A model generated the notes under the pieces. It did not search any database, was not told the origin of the DNA, and worked only from the letters and a program-made list of their open reading frames with translations. DNA of 56,035 nt from a virus (Duplodnaviria > Heunggongvirae > Uroviricota > Caudoviricetes). The position numbers and the translations under genes were made by a program. Below are positions 3,365 through 23,706 of the stretch, piece by piece. How positions within the stretch are numbered: the first letter of the stretch is position 1; each line of letters opens with the position of its first letter. The DNA is taken from IMG/VR virus record IMGVR_UViG_2740892233_000026, one strand, 5' to 3'.

Positions 3365-4063
3365 TTACTGCGAAAGTTTGTTAATGGAAAGGAAGCCGCC
3401 AAAGTTGCCGACGTTATTGTGGAACTTACAACCGCTCAGGCATTTGCTGCATTTATCCTTCGTGATATCGGACGTTGGCTGGTCATATTCATCCGCGACA
3501 GCCGGACCGCTATAACCGCACTCGTCACCGCGATAGGTCCAGGTGCAGGTGTTGGCCAGCATGATACGTCCCGGAAAAACAGCGCCATCCGTTTCCGTCG
3601 GCGTGGACAGTACAAAGGAGGCACTCACCGCGCTCAGTTCGCTGCACTGCTCAATGCGCCAGCGGCTGATCACCTCCTGCTCCGGATCGGCGTAACTGTT
3701 TCCGTTGACGAAGTTCACCGCATCCAGAAAACGGGCGTAAACCTTACGCCGGACCACCGTTCCGCCGACCAGACTCTGCAGATCTTCCGCCATCCCGGTG
3801 ACCATACCGTACAGGTTAGAAACCGTCAGCGTGGGGCGCGTACTGGTGCCTTTGCCATTCAGTTCAAAACCGCTCCCCTGAATGGGATACGGCTGATACT
3901 GTCGCCCCTGCCAGGTGACCGGCTCACCTTTTTCGTTCTGCTCATTACAGAAAAAATAACGTTCTCCACCGACCTCTGTCAGGTCGATTTCCCAGAGCAC
4001 CACGCTGGCCGACTGCTCCGCACGGGTGCATTCATTCAGTGTTTCCTGCCGGATATCCTGCAT
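3365..4063 (-). CDS. L: minor tail protein L
   Basis: 232-aa ORF MQDIRQETLNECTRAEQSASVVLWEIDLTEVGGERYFFCNEQNEKGEPVTWQGRQYQPYPIQGSGFELNGKG..., lambda L-like, synteny. Confidence 0.9.
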   Translation of the reverse strand: MQDIRQETLNECTRAEQSASVVLWEIDLTEVGGERYFFCNEQNEKGEPVTWQGRQYQPYPIQGSGFELNGKGTSTRPTLTVSNLYGMVTGMAEDLQSLVGGTVVRRKVYARFLDAVNFVNGNSYADPEQEVISRWRIEQCSELSAVSASFVLSTPTETDGAVFPGRIMLANTCTWTYRGDECGYSGPAVADEYDQPTSDITKDKCSKCLSGCKFHNNVGNFGGFLSINKLSQ

Positions 4064-4392
4064 CAGTTCACCACCTGTTTAAACTCTGCGCTGAACTCAA
4101 CACGCAACATACTGACCTGCGACGACCATTTTGCGCAGGTCACCTTTATCTGCCTGTAACCATAAGGCGGCGTCCACAGAAAGGCCTTCCAGCCCCCGTG
4201 CTCAGCCAGAAACGACTCCAGCGCCGTGGCCTCCTCACGGGAGACAGACAGCGTCACGCTGTACGTTTTCAGGTCAGCGTTCAGCCCGGCAGGCACACGC
4301 TGGGAATAGCCATCACCAAAGCGCACCTCCCTGACGGAAGGGGCCGATGTCACATCCATACCGGGTTTCACTTTCCAGCGGAAGGTTTTCAT
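4063..4392 (-). CDS. M: minor tail protein M
   Basis: 109-aa ORF MKTFRWKVKPGMDV...VEFSAEFKQVVN, lambda M-like. Confidence 0.9.
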   Translation of the reverse strand: MKTFRWKVKPGMDVTSAPSVREVRFGDGYSQRVPAGLNADLKTYSVTLSVSREEATALESFLAEHGGWKAFLWTPPYGYRQIKVTCAKWSSQVSMLRVEFSAEFKQVVN

Positions 4393-21251: not shown

Positions 21252-21584
21252 TCAGGGTGCAGAAGGACTAAAGATAAACGTTTTCTTCACGCCTTTACGC
21301 GGCCTGTCCTTCTCAAATCGCCATTTTGCCATCGCCTTTACAACCTGCTCATCAAACAGATGGTGCGGCTCTGAACGGATAAACTCAATTCGGGTGACAG
21401 TACCATCAGCACCAATATCAAACTTCACATCAACCCGTCCCTTTATATAATTTGCCGCTGCATAGGCCGGATATTGTGGTAATGCCTTAACCAACTGTCG
21501 GGGCATATCTGTTTTATGTTGCGTACAGCCCATAACCAGAGAAGACAACAAAATAATTAACGGAAGATTTCTTTTCATTTTCAT
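21252..21584 (-). CDS. lipoprotein with TonB C-terminal-like domain
   Basis: Signal peptide and lipobox MKMKRNLPLIILLSSLVMGC; LPQYPAYAAANYIKGRVDVKFDIGADGTVTRIEFIRSEPHHLFDEQVVKAMAKWRFE aligns motif-by-motif with E. coli TonB C-terminus (QPQYPARAQALRIEGQVKVKFDV..DGRV...AMRRWRYE); sits downstream of Rz/Rz1. Confidence 0.7.
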   Translation of the reverse strand: MKMKRNLPLIILLSSLVMGCTQHKTDMPRQLVKALPQYPAYAAANYIKGRVDVKFDIGADGTVTRIEFIRSEPHHLFDEQVVKAMAKWRFEKDRPRKGVKKTFIFSPSAP

Positions 21585-21598
21585 TCCCGGCACAGATA

Positions 21599-21916: not shown

Positions 21917-22368
21917 TTAGTTCAGGCACTGAGTGCGGATATAGTCCTGTGCCCCTTCCAGCTGCTTCTGCATTGTCATCAACCGTTCTCTGAGGATGAA
22001 ATAATCCCGTTCAGCGGTGTCTGCCAGTCGGGGGCCGGTTGCATTATCCACGCCGGAGGTGCCGGTGGCTTCACGCACGGTACCGGAGCAGGTGGCGTTG
22101 ATCCGCAGGCGCTTACGACCAGCGGCAACATCAGCACGCAGAGTTTCATTTTCAGCTCTCGCATCGGCTAATTCCCTCGAGTATTTTGCATCGAGCTCAG
22201 CAACATCGCGCTGGCGCACCTGCATATCAGTAATGGTTGCGTTTGCCAGCTCCAGCTCTCTGGCTTTTTTATCGCGCTGCGCTTTGTAGGTGATGACGTT
22301 ATCGCGGTAATGATTCAGCCCCAGACTAAGCGCACCACAGACCACCAGCAGAATAACGGTAAACGCGG
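21917..22368 (-). CDS. Rz: i-spanin Rz (5' end cut by gap)
   Basis: ...[46 protein letters not shown]...[31 protein letters not shown]. Confidence 0.8.
21979..22164 (-). CDS. Rz1: o-spanin Rz1
   Basis: [61 protein letters not shown]. Confidence 0.8.
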
Positions 22369-22378
22369 NNNNNNNNNN
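22369..22378. other. scaffold gap (10 N)
   Basis: 10 N; sequence before gap recurs at ~22440-22488 after it. Confidence 0.95.
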
Positions 22379-22504
22379 TGCGATGATGGATGTGGCTTTA
22401 TCGCGCTGCTCTTTGTAAGCGATGGCGTTATCACGGTAATGATTCAGCCCCAGACTAAGCGCACCACAGACCACCAGCAGAATAACGGTAAACGCGGAAA
22501 GCAT
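22379..22504 (-). CDS. Rz: Rz 5' fragment (variant matching the Rz 3' part at 34674-35019)
   Basis: ATG 22504; [42 protein letters not shown] then gap; overlaps in sequence with start of the Rz piece at 34674. Confidence 0.6.
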
Positions 22505-22515
22505 TCGGTTTATGC

Positions 22516-22665
22516 TCACCCCACCAGCCCTGCCGAAGTCAACGCCATCCAGGTTATGGAAAGAAAAAGAACAACCAGCATTAGTGAAAATGAAATACCG
22601 ACGATTACACAAAGGCCCTTCGCCAGCGTTATGAGTTTATCCGATATCATTAGCCACCACTCCAT
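22516..22665 (-). CDS. small hydrophobic protein (49 aa), copy 1
   Basis: MEWWLMISDKLITLAKGLCVIVGISFSLMLVVLFLSITWMALTSAGLVG; ends 11 nt before Rz start; not in supplied ORF track (below length cutoff). Confidence 0.35.
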   Translation of the reverse strand: MEWWLMISDKLITLAKGLCVIVGISFSLMLVVLFLSITWMALTSAGLVG

Positions 22666-22681
22666 CAATCCGCCTTTGTTA

Positions 22682-22691
22682 NNNNNNNNNN
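22682..22691. other. scaffold gap (10 N)
   Basis: 10 N. Confidence 0.95.
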
Positions 22692-22772
22692 GCGGTAATG
22701 ATTCAGCCCCAGACTAAGTGCACCACAGGCTACCAGCAGGACAATAATCACCACACACAGAACACGGTTCAT
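22692..22772 (-). CDS. Rz: Rz 5' fragment (another variant)
   Basis: ATG 22772 preceded by [34 protein letters not shown] then gap. Confidence 0.55.
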
Positions 22773-22779
22773 CTCTCTT

Positions 22780-22929
22780 TCACCCCACCAGTCCCGATAA
22801 CGTCAGGACTCGCCAAGCGGTGGAAAAGAAAATGGCAACCAGAATGACTAAAAATGAAATGCCGACGATTACACAGAGGATCTTCGCCAGCGTTATGAGT
22901 TTATCCGATATCATTAGCCACCACTCCAT
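22780..22929 (-). CDS. small hydrophobic protein (49 aa), copy 2
   Basis: MEWWLMISDKLITLAKILCVIVGISFLVILVAIFFSTAWRVLTLSGLVG; start overlaps upstream stop (TGATG); conserved with copy 1. Confidence 0.35.
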   Translation of the reverse strand: MEWWLMISDKLITLAKILCVIVGISFLVILVAIFFSTAWRVLTLSGLVG

Positions 22930-23350
22930 CAATCCGCCTTTGTTATTTTCCCTTTGCCTGTATCAGCCAGGACAAAATCAATCAGCAGATTCGCTTCGTT
23001 TATCAATGTGCGGATTTTTGATACATGCGCGGATTTAACCTGTTTCCACTCATTCAGCCCGGTAGCAAACACACTGGCAATGTTTTTATCCCGTTTCATG
23101 TCAGCGCAGGCCTGATTGAGTTCTTCCATCACACTCATTCGACGGGGATTAACGACACCCCCCTTCGTCCAGTATTCATAGAGAACATCGTCGCACTCTT
23201 CCTGATACTGGATTACCTTGTCGCGGATTTCGGGTTTTACTTTGTTGGGATTGATGGTTTGTAACCAGCCTGCAAGTTTTCGAAGTGGCAGGGACACCAT
23301 ATTGCGTCGTTTCCCATCCTCAGCAACCATAACGATTTCCGTTATAGTTG
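22929..23350 (-). CDS. phage protein of unknown function, 3' part (possible antirepressor-like gene upstream of Rz; truncated by gap)
   Basis: In-frame ...SLPLRKLAGWLQTINPNKVKPEIRGKVIQYQEECDDVLYEYWTKG...ANLLIDFVLADTGKGKITKAD; a duplicated copy of part of it follows in 23361-23602. Confidence 0.4.
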
Positions 23351-23360
23351 NNNNNNNNNN
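23351..23360. other. scaffold gap (10 N)
   Basis: 10 N; ~240 bp near-identical flanks. Confidence 0.95.
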
Positions 23361-23602
23361 AGCCTGATTGAGTTCTTCCATCACACTCATTCGACGGGGA
23401 TTAACGACAAAACCCTTCGTCCAGTATTCATAGAGAACATCGTCACACTCTTCCTGATACTGGATTACCTTGCCGCGGATTTCGGGTTTTACTTTGTTGG
23501 GATTGATGGTTTGTAACCAGCCTGCAAGTTTTCGAAGCGGCAGGGACACCATATTGCGTCGTTTCCCATCCTCAGCAACCATAACGATTTCCGTTATAGT
23601 TG

Positions 23603-23612
23603 NNNNNNNNNN
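23603..23612. other. scaffold gap (10 N)
   Basis: 10 N. Confidence 0.95.
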
Positions 23613-23706
23613 CGATGGCGTTATCACGGTAATGATTAACAGCCCATGACTGGCAGGCGATAATGCAGATAACCAGAGCGGAGATAATAACGGTTACCCT
23701 GCTCAT
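23613..23706 (-). CDS. Rz: Rz 5' fragment (duplicate of the endolysin-Rz junction at 24720-24810)
   Basis: Minus ATG 23706; [31 protein letters not shown]... Confidence 0.5.

Follow-up and report, generated by a model that had tools for sequence, protein, structure and literature searches.

A small hydrophobic open reading frame upstream of the spanin gene Rz in Escherichia coli and Shigella prophages

We analyzed a short open reading frame (ORF) that is located just upstream of the i-spanin gene Rz in a stretch of viral DNA of 56,035 nt (hereafter, the window), in which it is present in two divergent copies. The ORF is very probably a real coding gene. Its conserved product, as deduced from the aligned start regions, would be a peptide of 43-44 aa that is modelled as a single membrane-spanning helix. 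We tentatively propose, with a probability of about 0.4, that the peptide has an accessory role in lysis; position and operon structure are the basis of this proposal. The operon in which the ORF lies governs host lysis and, through it, the release of Shiga toxin. If the peptide alters the timing or efficiency of lysis, it would offer a cheap genetic handle on toxin release and represent a new kind of lysis accessory. If it provides only translational coupling, it would illustrate how operon architecture can maintain a young orphan ORF.

Two copies of the ORF in the window

The first-pass annotation described a 49-codon ORF in two copies between an upstream phage gene and Rz. This arrangement was confirmed, and the upstream gene is an antirepressor gene (Ant; Table 1). 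Both copies and their neighbours are encoded on the minus strand. The window is composed of 21 short pieces joined by N10 runs, and the two copies are located on separate pieces; there was no third copy in the window. Ant was identified using Pfam on a full-length homologue (L125, 3432-4001) and by PHROG 524, and Rz was identified by PF03245 on full-length homologues.

The ATG of copy 2 shares one base with the Ant stop codon (TGATG), as had been noted, and the same junction precedes copy 1, where the 303-bp piece ends 16 nt upstream of the ATG. On the downstream side, the ORF stop is separated from the Rz ATG by 11 nt in copy 1 and by 7 nt in copy 2, in agreement with the distance of 7-11 nt given previously. 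The two Rz 5' ends are different alleles. An alternative GTG of the type-B Rz overlaps the stop of copy 1 as GTGA, and the ATG of the type-A Rz is preceded by AAGAGAG.

Between the copies, 29 of 150 nt and 13 of 49 aa are different, and 25 of the 29 nucleotide differences are located in the 3' half. Copy 1 has a type-B C-terminus (…LFLSITWMALTSAGLVG) and copy 2 a type-A C-terminus (…IFFSTAWRVLTLSGLVG). The GRAVY values of their hydrophobic parts were 2.18 and 2.19, and the earlier description of the copies as divergent yet uniformly hydrophobic was thus borne out. Both matched the PHROG 4906 HMM (49 positions), residues 1-49 aligning to positions 1-49 (E = 2.9e-31 for copy 1 and 1.7e-32 for copy 2).

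Elsewhere in the window, at least three different lysis cassettes of lambdoid type are represented by fragments, which include an S21-type pinholin with an R21-type SAR endolysin and a lambda-type R transglycosylase. Where cassettes of the window have no inserted genes, the endolysin stop and the Rz ATG overlap (ATGA). The window looks like a draft EHEC-like assembly that is broken at repeated prophage DNA.

Table 1. Coordinates of features in the window and in the comparison loci.
Feature	Sequence	Position	Strand	Details
Piece carrying copy 1	window	22379..22681		
Piece carrying copy 2	window	22692..23350		
Small ORF copy 1	window	22516..22665	-	49 codons + TGA; ATG 22665..22663; stop TGA 22518..22516; conserved core from Met6, 22650..22648
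Small ORF copy 2	window	22780..22929	-	49 codons + TGA; ATG 22929..22927; stop 22782..22780; conserved core from Met6, 22914..22912
Rz (i-spanin) 5' fragment, N-terminal type B	window	22379..22519	-	ATG 22504; alternative GTG 22519..22517; piece ends 22379; first 42 codons
Rz 5' fragment, N-terminal type A (MNRVLCVVIIV…)	window	22692..22772	-	ATG 22772; first 27 codons
Ant gene, 3' part (P22_AR_N + ORF11CD3 type)	window	22929..23350	-	420 nt; stop TGA 22931..22929
Same kind of Ant gene, last 17 nt (…ITKAD*), ahead of copy 1	window	22665..22681	-	cut by piece end
Lysis cassette fragment	window	24034..24737	+	
ATGA overlap of endolysin stop and Rz ATG	window	24734..24737		
Lysis cassette fragment	window	24999..25475	-	
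113-aa lipoprotein gene downstream of Rz	window	21252..21593	-	lipobox LVMGC
113-aa lipoprotein gene downstream of Rz	L100	4926..5267		lipobox LVMGC
P0070 allele of the ORF	L141	3749..3880		
Ant fused in frame to the ORF	L003	about 3950..4150		
Dam methyltransferase gene and short TM ORF	L091	4271..5038		between the ORF and Rz
ORF homologue P0064 and lipobox protein	L139 (also L140)	4125..4322		GH108 cassette
Small hydrophobic ORF directly upstream of the ORF	L137	3777..3992		
Small hydrophobic ORF directly upstream of the ORF	L141	3468..3728		
Small hydrophobic ORF directly upstream of the ORF	L118	3861..3998		
Small hydrophobic ORF directly upstream of the ORF	L139	3861..3998		
Terminator-like hairpin	L020	3252..3274		just after the SAR endolysin gene
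Terminator-like hairpin	L137	3744..3776		just after the SAR endolysin gene

Distribution, coding evidence and predicted structure

A 201-nt query was present in 1238 of the 5426 complete E. coli genomes searched, at a median of 2 places per genome and at up to 9. The 276 phage records that matched a 43-aa query were almost all of Stx-converting or related phages. The ORF is not unannotated: PGAP and RefSeq annotate it as "hypothetical protein," PHROGs contains it, and a 2017 RIBOseq study of O157:H7 Sakai lists it as XECs191 (Hücker et al., 2017; PMC5597208). In the Sakai prophage Sp5, the ORF is ECs_5707, located between ECs_1214 (antirepressor) and ECs_1215 (Rz). XECs191 and ECs_5707 are a 48-aa MGWLMISDK… variant, to which copy 2 is 88% identical. 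PHROG 4906, ECs_5707 and XECs191 belong to the same family as the ORF of the window and share its position between ant and Rz, and the copies in the window are two alleles. Thus, the ORF is not new, being preceded by PHROG 4906, RefSeq and the RIBOseq listing.

We found no paper that assigns a function to the family. A literature search for ECs5707 gave no match, and the ORF is not mentioned in the comparative-genomics papers on Stx phages or in the paper on Phi24B ant, which is a different gene located before qut. Neither copy matched a family in Pfam or NCBIfam. Remote homologues were sought by a profile search of 1.84 billion protein representatives, which returned 28 matches, all belonging to the family itself, and a word-indexed protein search returned E. 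coli proteins only. As judged from sequence searches, the family appears confined to prophages of E. coli and Shigella, and the ORF may therefore be a young gene of marginal effect. In a scan of GTDB species representatives, the sole match was a 328-bp contig labelled Xanthomonas pisi (L002, NZ_JPLE01000251.1), which is 96% identical to the E. coli ORF and is probably E. coli contamination.

We collected 139 instances of the ORF, comprising 135 IMG/VR loci fetched via the protein, the two copies of the window, an annotated phage record and a short genome contig. The reading frame was open in all of them (28 DNA alleles), and the 42-codon core was free of indels. Stops were present in the other two frames of the same strand in 28 of 28 and 14 of 28 alleles. 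When a 43-aa query was used in tblastn, all 276 matching phage records covered at least 80% of it, and all 40 matches listed spanned residues 1-43. The conservation check proposed in the first-pass annotation, in which tolerated frameshifts would have counted against the ORF, thus found the frame intact in every fetched locus. Frameshifted or extended variants are present in the protein database (P0055, P0058, P0061, and P0077). These disrupted variants are rare, with 1-12 member sequences each, compared with up to 66 members and up to 832 contigs for the main intact clusters.

The dN/dS ratio between copies 1 and 2 was 0.32 (Fisher p = 0.009). Among the five most different alleles, the ratio was 0.24-0.48 in 8 of 10 pairs; Fisher's exact test gave p = 0.0009-0.009 in 4 of the 5 pairs tested and p = 0.59 for typeC-P0070, these comparisons being non-independent. 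Counting along a minimum spanning tree gave 0.60. The P0070 allele differed from its nearest relative by 17 non-synonymous and 4 synonymous substitutions (dN/dS ~1.6) and stays hydrophobic, a pattern that could reflect relaxed or diversifying selection. Because the spanning-tree ratio was 0.60 and that of P0070 exceeded 1, selection on the exact peptide sequence is moderate.

Selection on the hydrophobic character is clearer than that on the exact sequence. Second codon positions are 54% T, and the GRAVY value of the hydrophobic part was 1.94-2.26 in every allele. When the 29 observed substitutions were placed at random, an open and equally hydrophobic frame with no extra polar residues was retained in only 0.5-2% of trials. 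Further, K10, K16, C19, F26, W39, and G49 are invariant in an alignment of 18 sequences.

The alleles are mosaic, with breakpoints within the conserved centre of the ORF, and the C-terminal half co-varies with the Rz type. P0070 combines a type-B-like C-terminus with a type-A-like Rz. Coevolution of the C-terminal half with the N-terminus of Rz was considered and rejected, because linkage explains the co-variation and P0070 breaks the pattern.

Translation of the ORF, the absence of which had likewise been named as evidence against it, was found in the published RIBOseq data, where XECs191 is among the translated intergenic ORFs and is classed as "real" (PMC5597208). In LB its RNA RPKM was 30.0, with a RIBOseq RPKM of 12.6, an RCV of 0.43 and a coverage of 0.55, and the values were weaker in BHI; the footprint RPKM values reported are 12.6, 1.7, and 0.8 (PMC5597208). 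The RIBOseq signal was weak, and the cultures were uninduced.

A short ORF that has no Pfam or NCBIfam family and of which a few disrupted variants exist might be a chance open frame in a T-rich spacer rather than a gene. The 139 open frames, the dN/dS ratios, the retained hydrophobicity, the RIBOseq listing and the rarity of disrupted variants argue against this explanation, which we consider extremely improbable. We conclude that the 49-codon ORF is very probably a real coding gene.

The ORF occurs in three upstream contexts that have no upstream sequence in common, namely after a P22_AR_N-type Ant, after a KilAC-type ANT with a 31-45-aa hydrophobic ORF, and after a 71-aa membrane ORF. One start codon is kept in all three, with its own Shine-Dalgarno sequence (GGGAGG, AAGGGG or AAGAGG) located 6-8 nt ahead. 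In the KilAC-ANT context, the start reads ATG-TCA-GAC and is preceded by AAGGGG, and in the context of the 71-aa membrane ORF it is preceded by GGGAGG. In eight loci of the Ant context, representing three allele classes, the first ATG is out of frame or is followed by an in-frame stop (ATG GAG TGA…, ATG GAG TAG…), and the ATG at codon 6 is kept. The alignments indicate that the conserved start is Met6/7 (M(I)SDK) rather than Met1, and the conserved product would therefore be a 43-44-aa M(I)SDKLITLAK… peptide. The N-terminal extension (MEWWL or MGWL) appears optional, and with it the ORF reaches 48-49 codons in the Ant context. Accordingly, the extent of 49 codons given in the first-pass annotation stands as an open frame in both copies, but not as the conserved core. 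One IMG/VR contig (L003) has lost 1 nt from the A-rich end of ant (GGGAAAATAAC to GGGAAATAC), so that Ant and the small ORF form one continuous reading frame.

AlphaFold2, run with the 18-sequence alignment, predicted one continuous helix over residues 2-44 with a mean pLDDT of 89. Given this model, the peptide is in all likelihood a single-pass membrane helix. It is likely oriented in the inner membrane with its N-terminus in, where K10 and K16 are located, and its C-terminus out; one TM helix and an inner-membrane location were also predicted for XECs191 (PMC5597208). The C-terminus, …W(R/M)xL(T/S)xSGLVG, carries 0-1 charges and ends hydrophobic. Two small-xxx-small pairs are conserved, C19xxxG23 and S/A45xxxG49. 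With the frame conserved, dN/dS below 1, hydrophobicity retained and a model of one helix, the earlier suggestion of a selected single-pass membrane peptide in a lysis cassette was supported.

Gene order and expression signals

Gene order was determined in 92 loci with enough flanking sequence, in which neighbours were identified by Pfam. The most frequent order, found in 56 loci, is a pinholin (PF04971) followed by a SAR-type lysozyme, Ant, the ORF and Rz, and in four further loci, a Dam methylase separates the ORF from Rz in an otherwise identical order. In 13 loci, pinholin and lysozyme are followed by a 71-aa ORF, the ORF and Rz, and in 12 loci by KilAC-ANT, a 31-aa ORF, the ORF and Rz. 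Two loci contain Phage_holin_8 and holin_3_7, an M15 peptidase, Ant, the ORF and Rz. In two others the same holins are followed by GH108, KilAC-ANT, a small ORF, the ORF and a lipobox protein, and no Rz was called. The remaining three loci gave partial orders in which the upstream cassette was detected in part, all ending with the ORF and Rz.

Rz thus directly follows the ORF in 86 of the 92 loci and follows the Dam insert in four more. The cassettes around the ORF encode either of two holin sets (PF04971; PF16931 + PF05449) and one of three endolysin classes (SAR lysozyme, M15 peptidase, and GH108), and the ORF is therefore not tied to the pinholin. Rz is its most constant neighbour, and the link of the ORF to Rz is closer than that to any single type of holin or endolysin. 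An obligate partnership with Rz is not required, because L139 and L140 keep the ORF without a called Rz and L091 has Dam in between.

The ORF stop is always near the next start: 7 nt before the ATG of the type-A Rz, overlapping as GTGA in the type-B Rz, and 4 nt before the ATG of the lipoprotein in L139. In one allele class the ATG of the type-B Rz is mutated to ATT, and the GTG that overlaps the ORF stop is left as the start.

We also observed other accessory genes in this region. In L091 and three further loci, the insert comprises a short TM ORF and a gene for a D12-class Dam DNA methyltransferase (PF02086). In the GH108 cassette of L139 and L140, the gene of a 51-65-aa lipobox protein (LLVGC; PHROG 7528) begins 4 nt after the ORF homologue P0064 (44 aa), and no Rz/Rz1 was called ahead of the HNH and terminase genes. 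Two other families of small hydrophobic ORFs are located between the endolysin gene and Rz, directly upstream of the ORF; one comprises 60-86-aa products with a C-terminal TM segment (PHROG 1115), and the other 31-45-aa products (PHROG 6632). This interval seems to collect small membrane ORFs. Downstream of Rz, the 113-aa lipoprotein matches PHROG 1267, "Rz-like spanin"; by eye, it resembles a TonB-C-terminal-like lipoprotein moron, and the PHROG label may mislead.

Simple scans detected no sigma-70-like promoter on the strand of the ORF from the endolysin gene to the ORF in the three contexts. In two of the three contexts scanned, strong terminator-like hairpins with stems of 10-13 bp and a T-rich tail are located just after the SAR endolysin gene. 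The lack of a promoter and the upstream hairpins fit expression only from Q-modified late transcription. Further, since the accessory genes, the ORF and Rz all follow the hairpins, Rz/Rz1 would depend for their expression on Q-antiterminated read-through. The ORF is thus probably co-expressed and coupled with the late lysis operon.

Possible roles and comparison with known systems

In our proposal, the ORF belongs to the late lysis operon of Stx-type lambdoid prophages, which is subject to Q antitermination, and closes the series of accessory cistrons that separate the endolysin gene from Rz/Rz1. Translation would proceed in series, since the start overlaps or closely trails the upstream stop and the ORF stop is 7 nt before the type-A Rz ATG; in type B, the ORF stop overlaps the candidate GTG of Rz and is 11 nt before the ATG. 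The peptide would then be made at the time of lysis together with the i-spanin. Embedded in the membrane, it may modulate, without being essential, the final steps of lysis by contacting other helices; the two small-xxx-small pairs are candidate motifs for such contacts. Because Rz is the sole lysis component that is constant across the contexts, its transmembrane helix is the likeliest partner, rather than a particular holin or endolysin, although we hold even this assignment to be doubtful. It is likewise doubtful that the peptide represents a new class of lysis micro-protein, namely an inner-membrane helix that associates with the spanin or sets lysis timing in another way and that tunes the timing and completeness of the burst and hence the release of Stx and phage.

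The ORF may instead be a translational-coupling leader for Rz/Rz1 that replaces the lost ATGA coupling of R to Rz, its conserved 5' half being a recombination linker between mosaic modules and its peptide doing little. Such a leader would account for an ORF stop that is located 7 nt before the Rz ATG or overlaps the candidate GTG in two different relative frames. By eye, the type-B Rz ATG has no obvious Shine-Dalgarno sequence at the usual spacing, and the ATGA overlap of R and Rz in insert-free cassettes points in the same direction, as do the mosaic alleles with breakpoints in the conserved centre, the spanning-tree dN/dS of 0.60 and the lineage with a ratio above 1. However, a leader needs an open frame only, yet the synonymous excess was significant in four comparisons, and the hydrophobic character and six residues are conserved among 18 sequences. 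The ORF is also kept without an adjacent Rz in L139 and apart from Rz in L091, and the AAGAGAG before the type-A Rz could be a ribosome-binding site of its own. We therefore regard coupling as rather unlikely to be the main function of the ORF. A known RNA element as the actual conserved feature was rejected as well, since an Rfam scan of positions 22300-23700 for known RNA families, including antisense RNAs, gave no match at E ≤ 1.

The first-pass annotation favoured an antiholin, a lysis-timing peptide or a membrane-acting moron. As a moron expressed in the lysogen, for example a small inner-membrane peptide for superinfection exclusion or modification of the host membrane, the ORF would be located in the lysis region by chance. 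In Sakai, RNA and ribosome footprints were detected without induction, accessory genes (Ant, KilAC ANT, Dam, and lipoproteins) are concentrated in and around the R-Rz interval, and small single-pass exclusion proteins of the inner membrane such as HK97 gp15 and T4 Imm may serve as precedents. In contrast, the missing promoter and the terminator-like hairpins weaken this idea, and the ORF overlaps or abuts both neighbours and so has no independent expression signals. Further, the low footprint level fits spontaneous induction in a few cells, and the PADLOC defence-system models gave no match at E ≤ 1. We consider a moron unlikely.

We found nothing specific in favour of an antiholin. A role as antiholin or timing factor for the S21-type pinholin and SAR endolysin alone would fit the 85 of 92 loci that have a PF04971 pinholin and a SAR-type lysozyme; the small-xxx-small motifs could pack against holin helices, and P2 LysA may be a positional precedent. 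Nevertheless, the ORF is also present in the Phage_holin_8 and Phage_holin_3_7 cassettes with M15 or GH108, which have no Pfam match to a pinholin or SAR lysozyme, and these two holin sets are unrelated. The peptide is not similar to holin or antiholin families in Pfam, PHROGs or NCBIfam and has no charged soluble domain, and S21-type holins already make their own dual-start antiholin. Such a pinholin-specific factor is thus improbable.

Two further origins were tried and rejected. A duplication of the N-terminal TMD of Rz was not supported, since local protein alignments with four Rz N-termini gave shuffle P values of 0.015-0.9, which were not significant after 12 tests, and alignment at the DNA level gave P = 0.73-0.88. 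An N-terminally extended Rz is not the real gene, since upstream of Rz its frame stays open in type-B alleles alone (14 of 28 alleles contain stops) and type A has a different relative frame.

The proposed lysis accessory can be compared with several known systems. The Mu releasin gp25 (DUF2730) is a 99-aa protein with an N-out/C-in topology and an acidic cytoplasmic domain of 73 aa (PMC9239132). It resembles the ORF product in its small size, its single TMD and the location of its gene, which adjoins the spanin genes and follows a SAR endolysin gene at a distance of a few genes. The ORF product differs in having no DUF2730 match in Pfam and no soluble domain and in occurring also with M15 and GH108 endolysins. 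The dual-start antiholins (lambda S107 and phage 21 S71) and T4 RI are membrane-embedded, and the ORF product could, like them, modulate holin timing. However, the holin gene itself encodes the dual-start antiholins as isoforms, and T4 RI has a periplasmic domain, whereas the ORF is a separate cistron ~1.4 kb downstream of the holin gene and has no similarity to the PF04971 holin. The peptide has at least one TM helix, as holins do, but not the highly charged hydrophilic C-terminal tail; it did not match the holin family models in Pfam, PHROGs or NCBIfam, and its cassettes already encode PF04971 or PF16931 + PF05449 holins. Unlike the i-spanin Rz (PF03245), it has ~10 residues after the TMD, no periplasmic coiled-coil domain and no PF03245 match.

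Small hydrophobic type I toxins (Hok, TisB, and ZorO) and exclusion proteins (HK97 gp15 and T4 Imm) are of similar size, have a single hydrophobic helix and are prophage-borne. The ORF has no sequence similarity to them, and it sits in a late operon. A type I toxin gene would be expected to have its own promoter and a cognate antisense or overlapping sRNA; the scans gave neither a promoter-like site on the strand of the ORF nor an Rfam match, although an sRNA absent from Rfam would escape such a scan. P2 LysA, a proposed antiholin, is a non-essential membrane protein of ~141 aa with four TMDs, and its gene separates the endolysin gene K from the spanin genes lysB/lysC. The ORF product, with one helix and 43-49 aa, shows no sequence relationship to LysA in Pfam and PHROG scans. 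Nevertheless, both are membrane-embedded and occupy the same slot of the cassette, after the endolysin gene and just before the i-spanin gene, and P2 LysA is thus the closest positional analogue of the ORF.
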